From Escherichia coli (GTDB taxonomy: Bacteria > Pseudomonadota > Gammaproteobacteria > Enterobacterales > Enterobacteriaceae), in NCBI GenBank assembly GCA_025544715.1, contig GCA_025544715.1_4109.1: 64,000 nucleotides of DNA; one strand, written 5' to 3'. Shown here piece after piece: positions 1,903 to 49,914 of this stretch. The notes below the pieces were generated by a model, which made no database searches, was not told the DNA's origin, and saw only the letters and a list, made by a program, of their open reading frames with translations. Every line of letters begins with the position of its first letter. Within the stretch, counting starts at the first letter, position 1. The position numbers were made by a program, and so were the translations under genes.

Positions 1903-2739
1903 ATGGCTATGAATCCACTTGCTAAGTACACTAAAATTGAAGAGATCAGTACTAAGTTAGTTACAAACGGCGTTATTCCTTATAAAGAAGGAGTTCTAGG
2001 TCCAAAAGGTGTCAAATGTGGAGTTTGTGCACGTAGTGCACGTGATGAAATGACACTTAATACCCCCGATATGTTACTAAACGGAGATGCAGTATCCCGT
2101 GTTATTGAAAACTGTGTTCCTAATGTAATTGACGCTGATGAGTTGTATGTAAATGACGTTGAAATGCTTCTTATTGCTATTAAAGTTGCTTCTAAAGAAG
2201 AAACATATGATATTAACGTTGTATGTCCTGAATGTGAAAAAGAAGGTCGATTTGAACGTAATCTATCATATCTTCTTGAAACTGCACAAGCATTTGAAGA
2301 AATCCCATCAATTGATTTAGATAATGGGCTACGTTTGGAATTTAGACCACTGACATGGAAAGAATATTCATCGTTTGCTGAACGCATGTTCAGTGAGCAG
2401 CAGAAGACTAAGTTTCTTGAAACTGCTGATATTGATAAAGATGAAAAAGTAAAAATATTTTCTGAAGTATTTGAAAACATGGCTCAACTTAACTTCGATA
2501 TGATTGGTGGAGTTATTGCAAAAATTATAACACCAGATGGTGATGAAGTAGTTGAAAAAGAATTTATTAATGAATGGCTTGGACAACAATCGAAGGGAGT
2601 ACTTAAACTAATTCGTGAAAAAATGGATGAAGTACTTGAAATTGGAGTATCACATAGTATGGAAGTAGAATGTGATGGATGTAATCATCAATGGGAAATT
2701 GATGGACTAAAATATGATCCTAGTCATTTTTTCGAGTAA
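1903..2739 (+). CDS. Hypothetical protein with three CxxC pairs (zinc-ribbon-like), late-expressed
   Basis: 278 aa ORF; GGAG 10 nt upstream of ATG; exact TATAAATA at 1861-1868; motifs CGVC, CPEC, CDGC. Confidence 0.6.
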   Translation: MAMNPLAKYTKIEEISTKLVTNGVIPYKEGVLGPKGVKCGVCARSARDEMTLNTPDMLLNGDAVSRVIENCVPNVIDADELYVNDVEMLLIAIKVASKEETYDINVVCPECEKEGRFERNLSYLLETAQAFEEIPSIDLDNGLRLEFRPLTWKEYSSFAERMFSEQQKTKFLETADIDKDEKVKIFSEVFENMAQLNFDMIGGVIAKIITPDGDEVVEKEFINEWLGQQSKGVLKLIREKMDEVLEIGVSHSMEVECDGCNHQWEIDGLKYDPSHFFE

Positions 2740-2948
2740 TGCTTCTCCAGTCATCTCCTGAAGAAATACAAGAAGTACTGAAGGAGATAGAACTGAATAA
2801 GTCAGAAATCAAAAATGCACTAATGGAATGTTCTGTATATATGGATAACATTGACTATGGAACACTCCTTAATATGCCATTAATAGATAGAGACTTATTA
2901 GTTAAGTCTTTTAATAAAAAAATTAAAAAACAAAACGAGAAGCACTAA
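2739..2948 (+). CDS. Small hypothetical protein (69 aa), translationally coupled to upstream gene
   Basis: ATG overlaps the upstream TAA stop (TAATG); followed by a hairpin plus T8 terminator. Confidence 0.45.
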   Translation: MLLQSSPEEIQEVLKEIELNKSEIKNALMECSVYMDNIDYGTLLNMPLIDRDLLVKSFNKKIKKQNEKH

Positions 2949-2959
2949 TTTTCATATAG

Positions 2960-2985
2960 CCAGCACATTGTTGCTGGTTTTTTTT
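2960..2985 (+). terminator. Rho-independent terminator
   Basis: Hairpin CCAGCA-cattgt-TGCTGG followed by T8. Confidence 0.7.
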
Positions 2986-3159
2986 GGTTTTAAACTACAG
3001 AATTATTTGAATTGAATTATGAAAGGATTAATTTTAATATTATTGGATTCATCTAACTCATTTCATTCGTTAGCTGAAGAATATTCGTTACTACGTAACT
3101 CATATTCATTTAATTAAATTAATTATAAAGAACTTTAAAAGATTTAATACTTGACGGGA

Positions 3160-3620
3160 TTTGTTGAGGACATTTTCATCCCCCCGCAGGGGAATGAAGA
3201 CAATAAAAAAGAGACAATGAAGTCTCTATTTCTTGACGCTGATGGTTTCAGCATTTATTGTATTGCGAATTTCTTAAAAATATATTAAGAACGAAAGCGG
3301 GTTGCTCTGTTTCTCTCTATCGCAGTCATGTGCAACGGTCGTCAGTCTTAATCATCCTGACACTCACCTGAAAGTCTATACAATCAAACTTCAGGCTGTT
3401 TATTAAAATCACTTAATAAACTCCCTTAGCAAATCTGGTAAGGTGCGATCCTTATATGTCTATCGAGGAACTCTCTGTATGCTTATCGGAGTTCTTTATT
3501 GAGCCGCATTGCCGTGAGGGGTTCAAACTATGCCCACATCTAACGGGTTTCTTTTGCTCATCGCACTGTTGAACTGCTCATCTGCCATCTACATTTTCGA
3601 TAGGATCAGGTTCTAATTTA
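3160..3620. other. Structured ORF-free segment; candidate non-coding RNA or regulatory region
   Basis: No ORF of 60 aa or more between 2949 and 3784; locally higher GC than flanks; several dyad symmetries (e.g. AGAGAC-AATGAA-GTCTCT at 3209-3226; AGGAACTC...GAGTTCTT around 3468-3502). No tRNA cloverleaf recognised. Confidence 0.25.
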
Positions 3621-3784
3621 TATGCATTTCTGCATTCAACAGGATTGTCATTACTACAACAAACATTATAGCACAAACTTTAAAGTTGTCTCACTATTTT
3701 TATAAAAATATTCATTAAGTACTTAAAATATTGCAAATAACTAATCCATAAATATTTTGATAACAAATAGTTTGGTGAGGAATT

Positions 3785-4276
3785 ATGAAAAAAAGATTAA
3801 AAGATAGTAAGGATGCTGCAAACTATCGAAACGAATTGCTAAAGAAACAAAATGGAATAGATCCTATAATTAACGAACCAATAACTAAACCAGTACTGGA
3901 TCACTACCACTATGGTAACCAACATTGTAGACAAGTTCTTCAAAATGAAGTCAATGCTTGGGAAGGAAAGGTGCAAAACAGCTTCAATCGATATATGAAG
4001 CACTTAACTGATAAACCATTATATGAGGTACTCAGAAATCTTGCTGATTACCTAGAGCGTAATAACAGCATTCCTGACGATGAACAAGTTATACATCACA
4101 CTGCACTAACTGTTGATGTTAATAAGTTTAAAAGGCTCCCAGCAACACAGCAAAACGCGATTCTGGAAGGGTTAGGAGTTGTCCCTGGTAGCAACACTAC
4201 TGCTCGTGTAAAGCAAGCTAGAAAGCTGATTAAAGACGGTAAATTAAATATGGTTGATATAAAAAAAGGGAGCTAA
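3785..4276 (+). CDS. HNH / endonuclease VII-like domain protein (zinc-binding cysteines not conserved)
   Basis: 163 aa ORF with GAGGAA RBS; segment LDHYHYGNQHCRQVLQNEVNAWEG aligns by eye to the endonuclease VII core (DHDH...RGLLCxxCNxxEG) with Cys positions replaced. Confidence 0.45.
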   Translation: MKKRLKDSKDAANYRNELLKKQNGIDPIINEPITKPVLDHYHYGNQHCRQVLQNEVNAWEGKVQNSFNRYMKHLTDKPLYEVLRNLADYLERNNSIPDDEQVIHHTALTVDVNKFKRLPATQQNAILEGLGVVPGSNTTARVKQARKLIKDGKLNMVDIKKGS

Positions 4277-4292
4277 GGCTCCCTTTATCTTT
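4268..4292. terminator. Bidirectional Rho-independent terminator between convergent genes
   Basis: GGGAGC-taag-GCTCCC with A7 upstream and TTTATCTTT downstream; the plus-gene stop codon lies in the loop. Confidence 0.75.
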
Positions 4293-4294
4293 AA

Positions 4295-6442
4295 TTAGAA
4301 AACATCATCAAGAGTTGCATATTCAACAGTACTGAAACCGTCTTCTTTAACAACTTTGAGGATTTTTTCAGTCTTAGAAAGTAACTCTTCTCTATGGGAA
4401 ATAGCATAAACGTTCTTACCACGTACAGCAGCCATATCTTGGAAGATAGACCACACACGTAGAACACCACTTGAGTCAAGACCTTGGTCAATCATCTCAT
4501 CAATGATAAGAATATTAATACTTTGGTATAATGACTCATATGTATCACGGAAAGCACAAGATAATGCGATGTTTACCCTTGTACGCTCACCTCTACTAAG
4601 CTGTTTATAGTCAAAGTACTGCCCACTCTTCTCAATTTCAACACTCAAATCATTCAAAAACACAACATTATGCTCAGAACCGCACATATCGATATAGTAC
4701 TGAAGTCGTGTATTCAAATATGAGATATTTTGCTCAATAATACGTTTACGGACATAAGAATCCTTGTTTAAAAGTAATTTAACCAAGAAATCTTGGTGAT
4801 TTGACATTTTATCAAGATTATTATAGTCGCTATAATCGATTGGTACTAAAGAATCAGTCTTCAGAGTATTAATTTGGCTAATAAATGTGTTAGTAGTCTT
4901 CAATTCACGATCTAATTGCTGTGATAATGAATTTACAGTCATTTCTAACTCTTTAACTTCATATTTGTTTAATGTATCTGGAACTTCCATTAGTTCATAT
5001 GAGTTAAGTTCATCATATGATGACATAAGTTCATTTGCATAGATGTTTATTGGTTCTTCTTCACTCTTTCTGACCAATTCTTGAAGCTTATGTTCATGCA
5101 TTTGTGCTTCCGAAAGTGTATTATAATATGTCACAGGTTTAGGTGGCATATCAAAAATCTCAATACTATCAATTTCTTGAAGTAATGTTTCAATTTCAGA
5201 AGAAGAACTATCAATTTTAGCTTGAAGATCATTAATAGTACTTTGGATTTTGTCTTTAATTGAAGAAGTATGTTCGTTATGTTCCAATTCAGACATACAA
5301 AGTGGACATTTGCTGTTTTCAACTGTTGATAATTTGTCAATTTCAGCATTAATTGAACATTCATATCCTTTTAAAGCTATTTTTAGTGAGTTTAGTTTTT
5401 GTTCTTTGAAACGTTTTTGGTTATTATTCTCTTTTAGAATACCCTCTAACTGTTTCCATATCTCCAACTCATTATGATTTTCCAATTCTGCACTAATATC
5501 AATAGTTTTTAGCTTATCAATGCTTAGATTTAATGCTCTTTTAGATCTTTCAAGTTCACGGTCATATGCATCAAATTTTAAAGCCAACTCTTGTACACGG
5601 CGTTCAATTTCACCACGCTTTGCGTTATGAATAAGAGCTTTCTCTTTTATGTCAGCAGCTTCATAGAGGTCATTAAAGTCTAAAGTTTTATATATATTCA
5701 ACTCTTCATTTAACTTAGATACTCTATTATTTTTATCAATTTCAAACTGGTTTGCCTGTTCTTGTAGTGCCTCAATACTTTTTTGAATACGTTCATTACT
5801 TGCAGCTACAGTTTCATTTTTGAACTTTTCTTGTTCGGCTAAACGTTTAGTATCCTTATACATCTCCTTTAGCATTTCAGCTTTTTCCGTCAACTGTGTT
5901 ATTCCAAGAAGTTCTTCTATCATATCACGTTGTTTTTGTGTGGATAAAGCTAAGAAAGGTTCAACGTTAGCATTCAGTACTACAATATGTTCAAATAATA
6001 ATTGAGATATACCAAGAATTTCATTCAAATCTTCTTGTGTGTCTTTCTTTTCTCCCCTTGATTCATCTTCAATTTTATTATCTTTCCCTAAAGTAACAAA
6101 ATTGAAATACGTGGGACTTCTCCCACGTTCAACCAAATATTGTACACCATCTTTTTCAAACTCTACAACTACTTCACAATTTTTTCCATTAGTTTTATTG
6201 ACTAGGTTAGGAATTTTAATATCGTTACCAATACTTTTACCAAATAATCCAAAAACTAATCCTTGAATAATAGCACTTTTCCCTACACCATTTCGACGTC
6301 CGGTACTGTCACCACCTTCAATAACTGCATCATTATTTTGACCCAGTACTAATGAAATGTCGGAACCATTCAAGTCAATTGATTGTGGTGCATTACCAAA
6401 TGAAAAGAAGTTCCTCATAGATATACGTGTAATGTTTAGCAT
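4295..6442 (-). CDS. Rad50/SbcC-like recombination ATPase (T4 gp46-like)
   Basis: 715 aa; Walker A RNGVGKSA, long coiled-coil middle with CPLC zinc-hook, signature LSRGE, Walker B LIIDE. Confidence 0.85.
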   Translation of the reverse strand: MLNITRISMRNFFSFGNAPQSIDLNGSDISLVLGQNNDAVIEGGDSTGRRNGVGKSAIIQGLVFGLFGKSIGNDIKIPNLVNKTNGKNCEVVVEFEKDGVQYLVERGRSPTYFNFVTLGKDNKIEDESRGEKKDTQEDLNEILGISQLLFEHIVVLNANVEPFLALSTQKQRDMIEELLGITQLTEKAEMLKEMYKDTKRLAEQEKFKNETVAASNERIQKSIEALQEQANQFEIDKNNRVSKLNEELNIYKTLDFNDLYEAADIKEKALIHNAKRGEIERRVQELALKFDAYDRELERSKRALNLSIDKLKTIDISAELENHNELEIWKQLEGILKENNNQKRFKEQKLNSLKIALKGYECSINAEIDKLSTVENSKCPLCMSELEHNEHTSSIKDKIQSTINDLQAKIDSSSSEIETLLQEIDSIEIFDMPPKPVTYYNTLSEAQMHEHKLQELVRKSEEEPINIYANELMSSYDELNSYELMEVPDTLNKYEVKELEMTVNSLSQQLDRELKTTNTFISQINTLKTDSLVPIDYSDYNNLDKMSNHQDFLVKLLLNKDSYVRKRIIEQNISYLNTRLQYYIDMCGSEHNVVFLNDLSVEIEKSGQYFDYKQLSRGERTRVNIALSCAFRDTYESLYQSINILIIDEMIDQGLDSSGVLRVWSIFQDMAAVRGKNVYAISHREELLSKTEKILKVVKEDGFSTVEYATLDDVF

Positions 6443-15393: not shown

Positions 15394-15460
15394 GAATAAA
15401 TATTTCTATATATAATTCCCAGTACTGAACTAGTACTTTACTGATTTAAAGGAATAAATT

Positions 15461-44400: not shown

Positions 44401-47390
44401 AACAAATGCAGTAGTTTCTGGTGATGTTTCAGCAGCAACAGCTTCAATCTCAGGTGCAATTACTGGTGGTTCAGCAACACTATCTGGTGCTGGAACTGCT
44501 CTAAATGTAACTAATAATGCAACTGTCGGTGGTACACTTACTGTTGGTTCTATTACTTCAGCGGCAGAAAATGTATCCATTACTAAAAATACCGCTGTCA
44601 CTGGTAATTTAGCAGTATCTGGAACTCTAACTGCTGGTGTTATTGATTTGAGCACAACTGATGTTTCTGTGAAAACTTTAACTTCTCTTGGTGACGCAAC
44701 AGTTCGTGGTAACTTAACTGTTGATGGTTCTATTGACCTAAGTTCCGCAAACATCGTTGGTGTAACACTAGAAAGTACTGGCTCCACTACCGTAGGTACT
44801 GATTTGATACTAACTACTGGTAACATTACAGGTAGTCCATCTATTTCTGGTAACTTAGGTGTAACTGGAACTACAACTTTAACTGGTGCAACAACAGTTT
44901 CAAACACATTGAATACTGCTGGTAAACTAACAGTTAATGCTGGGGGAATTCAGGTTGTTGCAGGTGATATACAAGTTGATTCTGGAACTATTAATGCTCC
45001 TAGTGCTAATATTTCTGGTAGTTCAACACTTAATAGTGCTACTGTAACCACTACACTCGGTGTTACTGGGGCAGCAAGTATGAATGGTGGTTTAACTGCT
45101 TCTACTTTGGATGTAACAGGTGATAGTACAGTACAAAAACTAACTGTTAAAGGTGTATTTGTTCCTGAAGGTGGTTTGGACCTTTCCGGTGCTGATCTTA
45201 ACGTGAATAGCGTAACTGCTGCAACCACATTAAGTGTTACTGGTGCTAGTACTCTGACTGGTGGTGTTTCCACTTCAACAGTATCTGCATCCGGTAAGGT
45301 AACCGCACAAGAACTAAGTACTGGTACATTGGATGTAACCACAAATGGAACTGTTGGTGGAACTTTAGGTGTAACTGGTAAAGCAACTGTTGGCTCACTA
45401 GATTCAGGTGCAATATCTGCTACATCTGGTACATTTAGTACTACACTGGATGTAACTGGAGCAGCAACATTTGGTAATAATGTTAATATTACTGGCACAT
45501 TAACACCAGGTGCATTGGATTTAACTAGTACTGATGTAGTTGCTAACAGTCTTTCTGTTGCATCAACCCTACATTCAGATGGCAATGCAACAATTGGTGG
45601 TACATTAGGTGTAACTAGTGCAGTAACTGCTCCATCAATCGCTCTTAATGGTGAAGGTACTGCGTTGGCAGTTACTAATAACGCAACCATTGGTGGTACA
45701 TTAGGCGTAACTGGTAAAGCAACTGTTGGATCACTAGATACAGGTGCAATCTCTGCAACATCTGGTACATTTAGTACTACATTAGATGTGACTGGTGCAG
45801 CAACCTTTGGTAATAATGTTAATATTACTGGCACATTAACACCAGGTGCATTGGATTTAACTNNNNNNNNNNNNNNNNNNNNNNNNNNNNNNNNNNNNNN
45901 NNNNNNNNNNNNNNNNNNNNNNNNNNNNNNNNNNNNNNNNNNNNNNNNNNNNNNNNNNAACTAGTACTGATGTAGTTGCTAACAGTCTTTCTGTAGCTAC
46001 AACTCTACATTCAAATGGTAACGCAACCATTGGTGGAACATTAGGCGTAACTGGTGCAGTAACTGCTCCATCAATCGCTCTTAATGGTGAAGGTACTGCA
46101 TTAGCAGTTACTAATGACACAACGATTGGTGGTACATTAGGCGTAACTGGTGCTACAACTTTAGGTTCTCTAACAACCTCTGGTGCAGTTAAAACTGGTG
46201 CTAATGTTATTATCGGTACTAAAATTGGTGAACAACCAGAGACAGTTCAGATTTTCCCTAATACTTACATTGCAGGCTCCTTGCGTGTAGATGGTGGTAT
46301 CAACGCTGATATTGACGTTAGTGGTCAAACAATTGAACCTTATGCAGTTGTTGCGGCTGACACTATTAGTGCAGCGGGTAATATTACTTCTGGTGCAGAG
46401 TTGATTTCCAAATCAGCAACTATTGGTGATGTTGGTTCACAAAACAACAACTTAACAATCAATGGTAACGTAGTTAACAACGGTAACTTTACAGTAACTG
46501 GTCTACTAAACGCAACACTAAACCAAGCAAACTCTGACGTGGCTGTTAAATCATTAACTGCAACCAACAGTGTTGCTGCTGGTACTAGTATTACCGCAGG
46601 TACAAGTATTACTGCAACTGGTCTACTAAAAGGGAACACCCTTGAAGTAACTACTACTGGTTCATTTGGTGGTGCAGTAACAATGTCAAGTGGTGCTAAC
46701 ATTACTGGAACCGTTGGAATTACTTCTGGTAACCTAACTGTTGGTGGTGATATTTCTGCAACAGGTACTGCAACCCTAGCAGCAACTTCAGTAACTACCA
46801 TTACTACTTCTGGTGCAGCAACACTTGCTAGTGCATCTGTTACTGGAGCAGCAACAATCGGTGGTACTTTAACTGTTACTGGTTTAATGACTGCAAATGG
46901 TAGTGTTGTTTTAGGTGACGCTGCTGCTGATACATTAACTGTCAATGCAACATCTTCTTTCAAAGAAAATGCAGTATTTGATAAAGATGTAACTGTAACT
47001 GGTCAATTAACAACTACTAATGCTGACCTAACTACTACAACAGTAACTACTAAAAAATATGATGTTATTCCTAATCAAGTAACTTCTTCTGTTATCGCAC
47101 CAACTGGTACTTGGACCCCAGACGGTACTAGCAACGTATACTTTATCACTCTAGATCAAGATACCACTCTAGCACCAATCACTGGTCTAATCGGTGGTGG
47201 TAAAGCATCTTCAGTATACATTTATGTGAAACAAGATGCAACAGGTAATAGAAACTTTACTACTGATGGTACTTATGCGGTTGTTGATGGCACACTGAAC
47301 AAAACTGCAAACTCTGTAACTATCTACCAAGTCATTTATGACGGTGTGAGTCCAGTAACAGATATGTTTATTGCACAACGTACTGCTTAA
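41411..47390 (+). CDS. Giant repetitive tail fibre protein (about 2,000 aa or more), interrupted by an assembly gap
   Basis: ORF track splits this into 41411..45964 and 46281..47390, but the stop after the N-run is a frame artefact: sequence after the gap continues the same repeat in an open frame (TSTDVVANSLSV...). Thr/Gly/Val-rich beta-strand repeats of about 112, 140 and 155 aa. Confidence 0.65.
45377..46150 (+). repeat. Tandem 336 bp (112 aa) near-identical repeat units within the fibre gene, copy number unresolved
   Basis: Unit starting GGTAAAGCAACTGTTGG at 45377 recurs at 45713, and a third partial copy follows the gap. Confidence 0.8.
45863..45958. other. Assembly gap (96 N) inside the tandem-repeat region of the giant fibre gene
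   Basis: Run of N; flanking sequence is the same position in consecutive 336 bp repeat units (pre-gap ends ...GGATTTAACT, post-gap begins AACTAGTACT...). Confidence 0.95.
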
Positions 47391-47406
47391 TAATTATAAT
47401 AATAAA

Positions 47407-47431
47407 GGTGTCACTCATTTTGGGTGACACC
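47407..47431 (+). terminator. Stem-loop after the giant fibre gene (no clear U-tract)
   Basis: GGTGTCAC-(9 nt)-GTGACACC; downstream sequence is not T-rich. Confidence 0.35.
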
Positions 47432-47454
47432 ATCATAACAAGTGAGGTAGTTAT

Positions 47455-48234
47455 ATGTTCACATATGTGAAAGGAAATTCAAAAGAAAATTATGAATTGG
47501 GAAACATTATTTCCAATCCAATTGGTGTAAAAGGACTCAAAGAACGTCCTGGTGCAACACCAGAAGATCCACAAACCTATCGTTATCTTTATAGTGATAT
47601 TAGAACTCTTTATGGTATTTCAAGTAAAGATGGTTCACCAGTAGAACCAAATGATGCTGTTAGAAAAGAAGAAGGTTTTTGGTGGTTAGTGTATAAAAAT
47701 GTTGGAAATGTTAATGCTATTGAACAACCGTTGGAGTTTATTAAATTAAAAGATGAAAATCAACCTATTGTTGAATTTTTTGAAGATGCCACAGAAGAAT
47801 ATAAAGCACTAACTGTTCTTAAAACATATCATTATATTGATATACCAATAGCAGATGTTAAAGCTGATTTAAAAGCAAGAACTATTTCAGAACGTACAAA
47901 TCGTATGAATTCTGGTTATATGTTCAATGGTCATCGTTACAGTACTGATATGTCTGGTCGTCAAATGCTTCTTAATTATTATACACAAGTCACTTCAGGT
48001 TCTGAAAGTGTTTCTATTTTTCTTGATGACGCAATTGTAAAATTATCTGCTGCTGAAATGACACAACTATACACTGAAGCCTTTGCTATGATTGAGCAAT
48101 TGTTTACAGAATGTGACAATCAGTGTGCTGCAATTGACGCAGTTGATGATTTAGATCCTGATGCAATTTATAAGGCACAACAAGCTGCAACTTGGGTATA
48201 TGAAGGTGTTGATATTCCTGAACGTATACGTTAA
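47455..48234 (+). CDS. Hypothetical protein (259 aa), possibly fibre-associated (assembly/chaperone?)
   Basis: ORF with GAGGT RBS between two fibre genes; function assigned by position only. Confidence 0.45.
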   Translation: MFTYVKGNSKENYELGNIISNPIGVKGLKERPGATPEDPQTYRYLYSDIRTLYGISSKDGSPVEPNDAVRKEEGFWWLVYKNVGNVNAIEQPLEFIKLKDENQPIVEFFEDATEEYKALTVLKTYHYIDIPIADVKADLKARTISERTNRMNSGYMFNGHRYSTDMSGRQMLLNYYTQVTSGSESVSIFLDDAIVKLSAAEMTQLYTEAFAMIEQLFTECDNQCAAIDAVDDLDPDAIYKAQQAATWVYEGVDIPERIR

Positions 48235-48242
48235 TTAATAAT

Positions 48243-48275
48243 AAAGGTCAACTATGGTTGGCCTTTATTTGTTTC
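48243..48275 (+). terminator. Rho-independent terminator (AAGGTCAA...TTGGCCTT family)
   Basis: AAAGGTCAAC-tatg-GTTGGCCTTT (one G-U pair) followed by ATTTGTTT. Confidence 0.7.
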
Positions 48276-48291
48276 AATATAAGGAAAATAT

Positions 48292-49905
48292 ATGTATAAT
48301 ATAAGAACAGATATTATTGTAAATGGTGATATCAGCTATGACGGTGATCTAATAGGTAAGATTCCAGTACCTGATATTAGTTCTAAAAATAAAAATATTT
48401 TAATTCATGAAAGTGATGGTTTATATGTTCCAGATAACACTATTAACTATCAAGGTGGTACTGGTATATCAATATCCTCTAATTTAATATCTACAAAAAT
48501 CAGTTCAACTGAAGGTAATATCCTTAGTAATGATTCTAACGGGTTGTATGTTCCTGATAATACGGCAAGCTACATAGCTGGAAATGGTATCAATGTTAAT
48601 ACAAATGTTATATCTGCTAAAGTGAGTTTAAATTCTGGAAACATTCTGATTTCTGATACTAATGGTCTGTATGTTCCTAATACATCAATTGTGTATTCTG
48701 AGGGAACTGGTGTAGAAATAAGTAATAATACTATTTCAGCTAAAATAAGTACATCTCCTAATAACATAGTTACTATTGCAGAAGGTGGTTTATATGTCCC
48801 TGATAATACAGTAACATATACAGGTAGTGACAGTATTAAAATAGATAATAATATTATATCATCAAAAGTAAGCACATCTTTAGGAAATATCCTTACAACT
48901 GATAGTACGGGTCTATTCGTACCTGATAATTCGATAACGTACAATGCGGGTAATGGGATTGTAATTAGTGATGAAGTGATTAGTGTTGAGGTTGACCCTA
49001 CGCCAGAAAATATATTATCTTCTACTAGCAATGGTTTATTTGTTCCTAACAATACTGTAACTTATAATGCTGGCAACGGAATTTCAATTAACTCTGATAT
49101 AATAAGTGCTAAAATTAGTTCTACTTCTGGTAATATACTATCTACTGACAGTACTGGATTGTTTGTGCCTAATACAAGAATAAATTACGTTGGTGGTACT
49201 GGTATATCAATTAGTTCAGAAACAATTTCAACCAAAATAAGCACAACACCAGGAAATACTTTAACAACTGACGTAAATGGGTTATATGTACCGACTGGTC
49301 CATCCTCATATACTGCTGGAAATGGTATAACTATTGACAGTAATGTTATTTCGTCTAAAATAAGTAATACCTCTGGTAATATATTAACATCAGATAGTTC
49401 TGGATTATTTGTTAATGGTAATAATACTACTAACCTAGTTCGTAGAAAAAGAGAATTATATTATTCAAACTTAAATATACAATTCACAGATGGAATTGAA
49501 CAGAATTTAATTCAAATACTTAAATCATTGACCCCCACTAGTGGAACACTAGATAGTTTCTTCAATACAACAAGTAATAAGCTAAATGTTTATAATTTCA
49601 ATTCATCTCTAAATTTCAAATTAAATATATACGGTACATGGACTACTAGTTCATCTAATATGAGTTTTGCTATTAATTTTACAAATACTCAATTTAATAA
49701 TATTAACCAAGTTAGAACACCAACAATCACAGTTGATACTATTTCATTTAATACATTTTTAAGTGTTGATGAAAATGGTAACCTAGTAACTAATGGAACA
49801 CCTATTACGTTAATGTCACATGGTGGCAAGTTTACAGTCACTAATTTATTATTAATTGCTGAGCAAATCGTTCCACCTTCAATGAGTGGGGTTTCTGTAG
49901 TGTAA
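48292..49905 (+). CDS. Tail fibre-like protein with about nine tandem ~40 aa repeats
   Basis: 537 aa; repeated unit ...S(D/N)GLYVPDNT..Y.(A/G)GNGI.I..N.IS.K(I/V)S...GNIL...; N-terminus MYNIRTD... resembles the giant fibre N-terminus MYSIKTD.... Confidence 0.55.
   Translation: MYNIRTDIIVNGDISYDGDLIGKIPVPDISSKNKNILIHESDGLYVPDNTINYQGGTGISISSNLISTKISSTEGNILSNDSNGLYVPDNTASYIAGNGINVNTNVISAKVSLNSGNILISDTNGLYVPNTSIVYSEGTGVEISNNTISAKISTSPNNIVTIAEGGLYVPDNTVTYTGSDSIKIDNNIISSKVSTSLGNILTTDSTGLFVPDNSITYNAGNGIVISDEVISVEVDPTPENILSSTSNGLFVPNNTVTYNAGNGISINSDIISAKISSTSGNILSTDSTGLFVPNTRINYVGGTGISISSETISTKISTTPGNTLTTDVNGLYVPTGPSSYTAGNGITIDSNVISSKISNTSGNILTSDSSGLFVNGNNTTNLVRRKRELYYSNLNIQFTDGIEQNLIQILKSLTPTSGTLDSFFNTTSNKLNVYNFNSSLNFKLNIYGTWTTSSSNMSFAINFTNTQFNNINQVRTPTITVDTISFNTFLSVDENGNLVTNGTPITLMSHGGKFTVTNLLLIAEQIVPPSMSGVSVV
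48409..49420 (+). repeat. About nine tandem ~120 bp coding repeats (approximate bounds)
   Basis: Recurring GLYVPDNT / GLFVPDN-containing units in the translated ORF. Confidence 0.6.
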
Positions 49906-49914
49906 TAACATATT

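Follow-up and report, generated by a model that had tools for sequence, protein, structure and literature searches.

To our knowledge, bacteria and phages offer few examples, about a dozen classes in all, of large RNAs whose fold is both elaborate and conserved. Some of these classes have opened up new RNA biochemistry; the others are still famous puzzles. GOLLD and ROOL, for example, are large orphan RNAs, often encoded by phages or prophages, that possess their own promoter and terminator, covarying helices and pseudoknots. ColE1 RNA II is about 550 nucleotides (nt) long, while ToxI and pseudo-ToxI represent an RNA shared by a host defence locus and the phages evading it, built as a tandem array of a 36-nt repeat with a known toxin partner. 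In the distantly related jumbo phage PA5oct, four non-coding RNAs (ncRNA001-004) of 236-619 nt, free of open reading frames (ORFs), have been defined by RNA-seq in the genome, two of which account for about 5% of phage reads in early/mid infection (PMC7318152). The present analysis concerns an ORF-free segment at positions 2949-3784 of a 64,000-nt stretch of DNA, hereafter the window (contig GCA_025544715.1_4109.1, filed under Escherichia coli), which belongs to an Asteriusvirus jumbo phage, the region being 99.9% identical to Escherichia phage 121Q and 99.8% identical to PBECO4. Positions 3150-3692 of the minus strand almost certainly hold a self-contained gene whose product is a large and highly structured non-coding RNA (ncRNA); members of its family recur in related jumbo phages and, in a few cases, on integrative islands of their bacterial hosts.

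The evidence for this gene comes principally from covariation among its relatives, which were collected by pattern scans of viral and metagenome collections and screened with nhmmer (33 non-identical members; 3 very divergent metagenomic). Matches of these scans were mostly due to chance: one scan yielded 1 new member, another several, a third several together with the three divergent ones, and a late scan added only RaK2 and one more. In a test alignment of 24 members, with the window copy first, the RNAalifold consensus contains 76 pairs, 50 of which show compensatory double changes. When 72 pairs in 14 helices were counted, 95.8% of cells were found to pair, as against 79.6% in column shuffles (a level reached by 0/500), with a covariation score of 0.467 versus 0.169 in shuffles, and control registers slid by 1-3 columns paired at 38-47%. 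Compensatory changes are present in 11 of the 14 helices, and by a generic test for structured RNA the helices are maintained by such changes beyond both shuffled and slid controls. The conserved fold comprises at least 14 helices, a three-way junction and a pseudoknot of 6 base pairs (bp), PK1, which was revealed by a covariation scan of the alignment and joins the hexaloop of H7 (AUUGUA, 3384-3379) to the UACAAU strand just 3' of H10 (3262-3257). PK1 is paired in 143/144 cells, with 4/6 pairs compensatory, slid controls at 20-45% and a covariation of 0.60 versus 0.18 in shuffles (0/500); its variants include AUUGUA/UACAAU, GUCGAA/UUCGAC, CUUGAA/UUCAAG, UUCGCA/UGCGAA and AUUGCA/UGCAAU. A candidate second pseudoknot, PK2 (AUG 3509-3507 with CAU 3458-3456), is 97% paired, with pair 227/278 occurring as GC:13 and AU:10, and is regarded as tentative because it has 3 bp only and one slid control pairs well. 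Near-invariant loops and joining segments accompany these helices (GAAAAUGUA, CAGAUGAG, AAACCCGUUAG, GAUAGACAUAU, CUAAGGGAG, GACCGUUGC and the 15-nt loop of H11), and AAGGGA is invariant in 24/24 members. Other parts of the fold are variable: the P1 position carries a hairpin of differing sequence in every member, the H6b site holds GNRA-capped or long inserts in other members with columns 328/395 covarying, and H11 reads AGGGG/CCUCU in phage K64-1 instead of GAGAG/CUUUC.

The strand of the gene can be assigned because G.U pairs, the strand of promoter and terminator, and the better minus-strand fold all agree. Invariant G.U pairs lie inside covarying helices and would be C.A mismatches on the opposite strand; in pairs that are otherwise largely Watson-Crick, G.U is the minority form in 62 cells and A.C in 23. 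The minimum free energy (MFE) of 3205-3658 gives z = -2.92 on the minus strand (0/100 shuffles as good) and -1.76 on the plus strand. The structure-bearing strand also carries the element's own promoter and terminator, both recognised as sequence motifs. T(G)GRAAC/GGGACA-N16-17-TGnTATAAT precedes nearly every family member, the extended -10 being nearly invariant, and the -35-like element (TGGAAC, TGAAAC or GGGACA) resembles the 'divergent RpoD-like' class of CBB and GAP32, described as TGAAACG with a TATA -10 and found mostly before DNA-synthesis genes (PMC5259590). From the promoter position, transcription is predicted to start at about 3658, and the RNA would be about 454 nt long to the terminator and about 509 nt including the conserved tail.

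This tail is kept in all members, including those without a terminator, such as 121Q copies c3 and c4 (our numbering). Its G-hairpin stem (helix 14) is conserved in sequence and shows no covariation, and its second element, R2, repeats a motif (R1) sited just before the terminator. R1 and R2 change in step across lineages, as CGUCAAG, CGUCAG, CUUCAAG (K64-1) and ACGAAG (member L197). Long-range helices proposed by RNAalifold, GGGA/UCYC and GAUG/CGUC of R2, were not adopted, being unsupported by K64-1 and L197. Past R2, the module at 3079-3107 matches a hairpin, GAAUUGAGUU...ACGAAGUGA...AACGAAAAUUC plus TTGACA, that stands about 40-70 nt past R2 behind most copies. Given the tail and the downstream module, nearly all of the 0.8-kb segment is accounted for as a composite unit plus back-to-back promoters, the terminator of the convergent baseplate-hub operon (2958-2989) excepted.

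The suggestion of an earlier sequence-only reading, that the segment encodes a structured ncRNA, is thus strongly supported by covariation in 11/14 helices and the pseudoknot, by conservation in relatives and by the minus-strand MFE z. That reading missed the minus strand, the four to five paralogs per phage genome, the confinement of the unit to about 3150-3665 and the copies on bacterial islands. Its description of the segment held in most respects: no ORF of 60 amino acids (aa) or more exists on either strand of 2949-3784, the longest having 45 aa; inverted repeats are numerous, with 6 terminator-like hairpins in 2700-4400 versus 0.9 expected; and at the left edge a terminator does stand, at 2958-2979 with a T-run after it. 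The elevated GC content was correct for the centre alone, windows in 3151-3600 having 0.39-0.43 versus 0.24-0.33 in the flanks, so that the elevation is confined to the central ~500 nt; the ends (2949-3150 and 3650-3784) are AT-rich, with a GC of 0.24-0.27. The coordinates of all features are collected in Table 1.

Table 1. Features of the RNA gene and of its immediate surroundings, in window positions.
Feature	Position	Strand	Basis
Predicted promoter of RNA gene: -35-like GAGACA (3692-3687), 16-nt spacer, extended -10 TGcTATAAT (3673-3665)	3665-3692	minus	consensus scan
Structured RNA, predicted short form of ~454 nt, start to end of terminator U-tract	3205-3658	minus	alignment, consensus fold, pair counts, MFE z
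P1, variable 5' hairpin UGCAG-aaa-UGCAU	3622-3635	minus	MFE and centroid fold
H1, hairpin CCUAUC/GAUGG with nearly invariant 9-nt loop GAAAAUGUA (3598-3590)	3585-3604	minus	all 5 pairs compensatory
H2, hairpin, preceded by invariant CAGAUGAG (3584-3577)	3563-3577	minus	pair 120/133 CG:9, AU:8, UA:7
H3, UGAGC/GCUCA enclosing H4, a variable insert and conserved blocks AAACCCGUUAG and CACGGCAAUGCGGC	3500-3560	minus	4/5 pairs compensatory, 100% paired
H4, CCGU/ACGG, inside H3	3546-3543 with 3515-3512	minus	invariant
H5, hairpin GAACUC/GAGUUC	3468-3494	minus	all 6 pairs compensatory
Conserved GAUAGACAUAU, then H6, hairpin UAAG/CUUA	3439-3464	minus	2 pairs of H6 compensatory
Invariant CUAAGGGAG (3429-3421), then H6b, variable hairpin GUUUAUUAA/UUAAUAAAC	3398-3429	minus	H6b in MFE fold
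H7, 13-bp hairpin; hexaloop AUUGUA is PK1 5' strand	3366-3397	minus	10/12 pairs compensatory
3' core: H8 (3362-3340), then GACCGUUGC and H9	3264-3362	minus	H8 compensatory
H10, UGCGA/UCGCA, closing three-way junction with H11 and H12	3324-3320 with 3268-3264	minus	compensatory, 100% paired
H11, GAGAG/CUUUC, invariant central G.U, conserved 15-nt loop AAACAGAGCAACCCG	3317-3293	minus	compensatory, 100% paired
H12	3290-3272	minus	compensatory changes
PK1 3' strand UACAAU, just 3' of H10	3257-3262	minus	pairs with H7 loop
R1, CAUCAGCGUCAAG, first copy of short direct repeat	3232-3244	minus	in most members 3' arm of a small hairpin
Predicted intrinsic terminator AGAGAC-uucauu-GUCUCU plus UUUUU	3205-3227	minus	terminator scan; all 5 stem pairs (helix 13) covary
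Conserved 3' tail: G-hairpin UUCAUUCCCC-UGCG-GGGGGAUGAA (3198-3175), then R2 CAAAUCCCGUCAAG (3163-3150)	3150-3198	minus	alignment
Downstream hairpin module GAAUAUGAGUUAC-GUA-GUAACGAAUAUUC	3079-3107	minus	inverted repeat; comparison of sequences 3' of R2
Intrinsic terminator of convergent operon (baseplate hub and 69-aa ORF), not part of the RNA	2958-2989	plus	terminator scan
Putative late-promoter-like motif ATAAATA, 30 nt upstream of the start codon (3785) of endonuclease VII	3748-3754	plus	read from sequence

No known RNA family accounts for the element. Rfam 15 gave 0 matches at gathering score across the window; at E<=10 it returned terminator-like small RNA noise outside the core and none inside, and at E<=5 no family matched inside the element in 11 other members, GOLLD, ROOL, introns, RNase P, tmRNA, 6S and riboswitches included. 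ARAGORN found 0 tRNA or tmRNA genes in the window. No description of this RNA, and no transcriptome of phages carrying the family, was found in the literature. An RNA family with neither an Rfam match nor a published description that could be found is a new family of a known kind, that of the large orphan phage RNAs. A protein gene or frameshifted pseudogene was likewise rejected: from member to member the longest ORF (18-74 aa) changes its strand, frame and position, a 36-aa minus-strand ORF at 3254-3144 is broken in other members, and indel runs are multiples of 3 in 64/408 cases (modulo 3, 0:64, 1:260, 2:84). On its plus strand the tail offered a hammerhead-like motif, CUGANGA, which was discarded by eye, the window copy reading UUGACGG. 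Anti-Shine-Dalgarno mimicry by the loop of H6 was rejected because this loop is variable.

Within phages, the element is both widespread and old. Its core (3143-3628) finds 70-76% DNA identity in distant Rak2-like jumbo-phage genera (Munch, GAP32, CBB, BF and fHe-Yen9-04, more weakly RaK2 and K64-1), with 4-5 matching places per genome, a degree of conservation well above what chance would give. The whole genome of 121Q contains four copies, at 326.5 (the window copy), 247.5, 192.8 and 90.3 kb, all situated in ORF-free gaps and all co-oriented, even where local genes run opposite. The 121Q copies have their sequence blocks in common and vary in the length of the hairpins between them, and each is preceded by GACA...TGnTATAAT; no additional copy lies inside the 64-kb window. 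Judging from the pattern scans, the family seems not to extend beyond Rak2-like phages, the islands described below and a small number of divergent metagenome contigs. Synteny at the window locus extends over 12 loci of several genera, with the RNA divergent from the endonuclease VII gene and facing the convergent hub operon, so that at this best-conserved locus the RNA has no gene after it that it could regulate. In K64-1 the copy shares the gene context of 121Q copy c3, and other genera possess a fifth locus, beside an ADP-ribosylglycohydrolase gene. BF and CBB orthologs differ by 0.15-0.19 and paralogs within one genome by 0.24-0.30; since orthologs are closer than paralogs, the copies predate the genera and have not been homogenised, and each genome thus carries 4-5 ancient paralogs at conserved positions. 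Genes co-oriented with the RNA follow it in 121Q c2-c4. 121Q c4 and two very divergent metagenomic members (L171:894-1565 and L246:525-1208) directly follow a sigma-70-family gene, which in the metagenomic members has Pfam regions 2, 3 and 4. A sigma neighbourhood was rejected as a general rule, since the nearest relatives of 121Q c4 in CBB and BF have no sigma gene beside them. These two metagenomic members also have an extra 5' extension of about 150 nt, rich in GCAUAAGC-like repeats.

Intact copies are found on bacterial integrative islands as well. Among 5,426 complete E. coli genomes, a sensitive search detected the RNA in 2, with 70.6% identity over 89% of its length, in both cases in an island of about 10.7 kb inserted beside ffs, as in LR-29-1 (NZ_AP027515.1, L287:7958-18302). 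The E. coli island begins with an IS3-split integrase, a 303-aa gene, the complete RNA and 0.7 kb without ORFs, and continues with genes of 257, 118 and 150 aa, a candidate defence system identified as PDC-M45 (DuOB, DUF488, mSLOG-DUF4326), a resolvase and a DUF2188 gene. Its RNA starts from a phage-type promoter motif and lacks none of the conserved blocks; PK1, terminator, G-hairpin and R2 are likewise present. Three iteron-like repeats, TTATCGATCGTT (L287:12950-13030), occupy the ORF-free DNA that separates the RNA from the 257-aa gene; they are kept in Klebsiella islands (L291, around 6100-6200) and could be an operator or the island's own origin. A further complete copy, found by pattern scan in Citrobacter amalonaticus, has a large serine recombinase and two tandem TGAAAC-N17-TGGTATAAT promoters in front of it, and a CI-like repressor and the same 118-aa gene after it. 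The island RNAs form 72/78 model pairs and differ from the nearest phage paralog by 13 (E. coli) and 23 (Citrobacter) compensatory double changes; the closest sequenced phage copy is 80.6% identical. A search of plasmids returned no RNA copy, and comparison of island with phage proteins showed none shared, an incidental DUF4326 match aside, leaving the RNA as the sole common element. Since the RNA is universal and ancient in the phages and rare in the hosts, its transfer was probably from phage to island. An exact match to a 22-base core pattern, GAGAGAAACNGNNNNACCCGCTTTCG, was also seen in Lewinella sp. IMCC34191 (Bacteroidota; NZ_QNQZ01000013.1, 1505-1530); it was not confirmed by the nhmmer family profile and is probably due to chance.

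The 118-aa gene marks a wider family of islands in Klebsiella, Enterobacter, Citrobacter, Cronobacter, Yersinia, Serratia, Pectobacterium and others, genera that largely overlap with the hosts of Rak2-like phages. Such islands measure about 10 kb, lie at ffs or beside a serine recombinase, and combine an integrase and the 257- and 118-aa genes with a resolvase and DUF2188 gene at the far end and a variable defence cargo (PDC-M45, SMODS cyclase, PAAR); some of them have TGAAAC promoters of the phage type. What Klebsiella islands retain, directly upstream of a core gene, is the promoter, R1, terminator, G-hairpin and R2, the RNA core being absent. In a K. pneumoniae island (L291:3525-3790) the promoter TGTGATATAAT is followed about 15 nt later by the R1-like ATCTCGTCA, a terminator, a degenerate G-hairpin and R2; this remnant looks like a natural deletion derivative, in which the core was either cut out from between the repeats or never entered there. 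Two copies of the downstream hairpin module are present in the same island, at 3729-3785 and 5467-5559. The Cronobacter and Yersinia islands that were examined have no RNA, and one Cronobacter island gene possesses a TGAAACG-N17-TATAAT promoter.

Taken together, these data are best read as pointing to a free, trans-acting folded RNA, to which a probability of roughly 0.5-0.55 is given. The RNA would be transcribed from an extended -10 promoter of the phage TGAAAC/GGGACA class and would mostly end at its own intrinsic terminator. It would then work through its three-dimensional fold, as a stand-alone and abundant molecule that serves as a protein scaffold or decoy or as a ribozyme, and probably not by base-pairing like a small regulatory RNA. 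Action through the fold is favoured because there is no gene to regulate at the window locus, because the invariant loops and pseudoknots resemble those of protein-binding or catalytic RNAs, and because the module is portable between contexts. A protein-binding scaffold or decoy is preferred over a ribozyme by about two to one, since 4-5 copies and strong promoters suggest stoichiometric amounts. Several observations weigh against a trans-acting RNA. No transcriptome of Asteriusvirus or a close relative was found in the literature, the two of four PA5oct ncRNAs that were compared with the family (nhmmer, blastn) show no similarity to it, no partner protein or catalytic motif was identified, and gene neighbours vary between copies. 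The fixed positions of non-homogenised paralogs, the conserved tail past the terminator and the islands with promoter and tail but no core all fit a role in cis at least as well, and the trans-acting reading does not account for the co-varying R1/R2. More speculatively, the RNA might belong to a new class of large phage RNAs, ribozyme-like or cage-like, and serve as a shared currency in conflict between jumbo phages and their hosts, the islands being satellites or sentinels of Rak2-like jumbo phages, some of which captured the module as an anti-phage decoy or helper-phage signal; as a whole this wider proposal is rather doubtful.

Foremost among the competing explanations, and itself unlikely, is a replication-origin pre-primer, a variant of the replication cis-element that the sequence-only reading had listed; the 350-kb genome would have several origins, and each element would mark one of them. 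Transcribed from a middle-class promoter, the RNA would fold, form a persistent RNA-DNA hybrid near the G-run and tail and be processed to prime the leading strand, as in ColE1 RNA II and T4 oriF/oriG, and islands would carry a copy for amplification by an infecting phage, so that their capture of the element would make sense. This model agrees with 4-5 copies spread along the genome in one orientation (at 90, 193, 247 and 327 kb in 121Q), with their conserved positions and lack of homogenisation, with a promoter class reported mainly before DNA-synthesis genes (PMC5259590), and with a sequence-conserved G6 run just past the terminator, followed in the window copy by a 24%-GC stretch. T4 oriF and oriG consist of a middle promoter and an unwinding element, and plasmids bearing them replicate in infected cells; R-loop formation is, however, independent of specific sequence, about 100 bp being enough (PMC3016281), and a 450-nt pseudoknotted fold with invariant loops would therefore be left unexplained by an origin. 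Moreover, a terminator that looks efficient closes most copies ahead of the G-run, and the AT-rich spacer shows no conservation, only about 40 nt lying between R2 and the following gene in 121Q c3. Co-orientation is weak evidence because most 121Q genes are on the same strand.

Less probable still is an infection-responsive cis-acting leader, in which promoter, RNA, terminator and tail form a regulatory cassette whose fold controls read-through of the terminator into downstream genes, by processive antitermination or in a riboswitch-like manner, and which islands use to switch on when the phage transcription machinery arrives. Co-oriented genes do follow in 121Q c2-c4 and in both islands, the tail beyond the terminator is conserved, and R1 and R2, which co-vary, could be alternative partners of one upstream segment; the Klebsiella arrangement directly upstream of the core gene and the promoter of the Cronobacter island gene are also in line with such a cassette. 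Yet the most widely conserved locus, that of the window, has nothing downstream to regulate, only a convergent operon and its terminator, and a suitable orientation is seen at 121Q c2-c4 and the islands alone. No conserved terminator/antiterminator alternative, nor any conserved pairing with the terminator stem, was found; the terminator stems covary freely, 121Q c3 and c4 lack a terminator altogether, and the core is not needed for the cassette, as it is absent from the Klebsiella islands. Finally, a DNA-level repeat without RNA function (a recombination hot spot, packaging or partition site, decayed mobile element, intron or homing-endonuclease gene) is very improbable: the copies are dispersed, one record annotates a 'repeat_region' only, the window copy adjoins endonuclease VII and SbcCD genes and 121Q has several homing endonucleases elsewhere, but selection at the RNA level is indicated by one-strand, G.U-tolerant compensatory changes together with a loop-strand pseudoknot, the copies keep their positions from genus to genus, terminal inverted repeats and target duplications are lacking, and the decayed intron or homing-endonuclease remnant that the sequence-only reading had entertained finds no Rfam intron model, no conserved ORF or ORF remnant, no predominance of indels in multiples of 3 and no interrupted host gene, complete genes flanking the element at all four 121Q loci.

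On the left of the window copy lies a 69-aa ORF (2739-2948), which follows the baseplate-hub gene in a plus-strand operon; the terminator after this operon is also annotated in the G17 and UE-S1 records. The right neighbour (3785-4276) is annotated as a T4-type endonuclease VII in more than 20 related GenBank records, and the ATAAATA motif before it is of the late-gene type described for CBB and GAP32 (PMC5259590). The 120-nt spacer at 3665-3784 would hence hold two divergent promoters of different temporal classes, for the RNA gene and for endonuclease VII. Where the endonuclease VII and SbcC-like genes converge, T-runs flank a perfect 9-bp hairpin (4265-4286) that resembles a bidirectional terminator. 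GenBank records mostly leave the RNA region empty; some place four or five short 'hypothetical proteins' there and one a 'repeat_region', and the spurious short genes should give way to an ncRNA feature. Elsewhere, at 15416-15446, the window lacks about 766 bp present in 121Q (314112-314877), corresponding to gene 584, an HNH endonuclease annotated as intron-associated between baseplate wedge and gp25-like genes, which represents a presence/absence polymorphism of a homing endonuclease. The stretch 45690-49913 aligns to 121Q only in fragments and in part not at all (121Q 281.7-284.2 kb, a tail-fibre/structural gene region), and 48266-49913 has no megablast match, being a variable segment probably related to host range. 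In 121Q itself, 2 kb without an annotated gene (135194-137161), amid packed ORFs of about 60 aa, has no match to the RNA family.

As a candidate class, the family offers unusually clean covariation, a predicted promoter and terminator and tractable hosts and phages (E. coli with 121Q, PBECO4 or G17), together with natural experiments in the form of 4-5 old paralogs per genome, island copies and core-deleted island derivatives. The island copies give a first hint of satellites or of dedicated sentinel islands wired to a jumbo-phage promoter class, a link that, if true, matters for phage therapy with these phages and for our view of their gene regulation.

Compared with known systems, the phage RNA most resembles GOLLD and ROOL in its length of several hundred nt, its many covarying helices, pseudoknots and invariant loops, its phage-borne nature and its own predicted promoter and terminator. 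It differs from them in having no Rfam 15 match in the window or in 11 other members, in occurring as 4-5 diverged paralogs per virulent jumbo-phage genome, and in the absence of tRNA genes near it in the window. With ColE1 RNA II and T4 oriF/oriG it shares a similar transcript size, a 3' G-run, a promoter of phage-middle type and several sites per genome (PMC3016281), whereas its fold is elaborate and conserved while T4 R-loops need no specific RNA sequence or fold, and most of its copies terminate before the G-run with no conserved unwinding element thereafter. The PA5oct ncRNA001-004 are likewise ORF-free, of comparable length and present four per genome, but ncRNA001 and ncRNA002 have no similarity to the phage RNA that nhmmer or blastn could detect. 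As with 6S RNA and CsrB, an abundant stand-alone RNA would act by its shape on a protein, and 121Q copy c4 and two very divergent metagenomic members follow a sigma-70-family gene; on the other hand, the phage RNA does not consist of one long hairpin interrupted by a central bubble, matches no Rfam 6S model, shows no repeated short protein-binding motif and does not universally have a sigma neighbour. Like ToxI, the family is present both in phages and in host islands with defence cargo, but it consists of a single folded RNA of about 500 nt whose transfer was likely from phage to island, and by analogy this sharing suggests mimicry or decoy use in phage-host or phage-satellite conflict.

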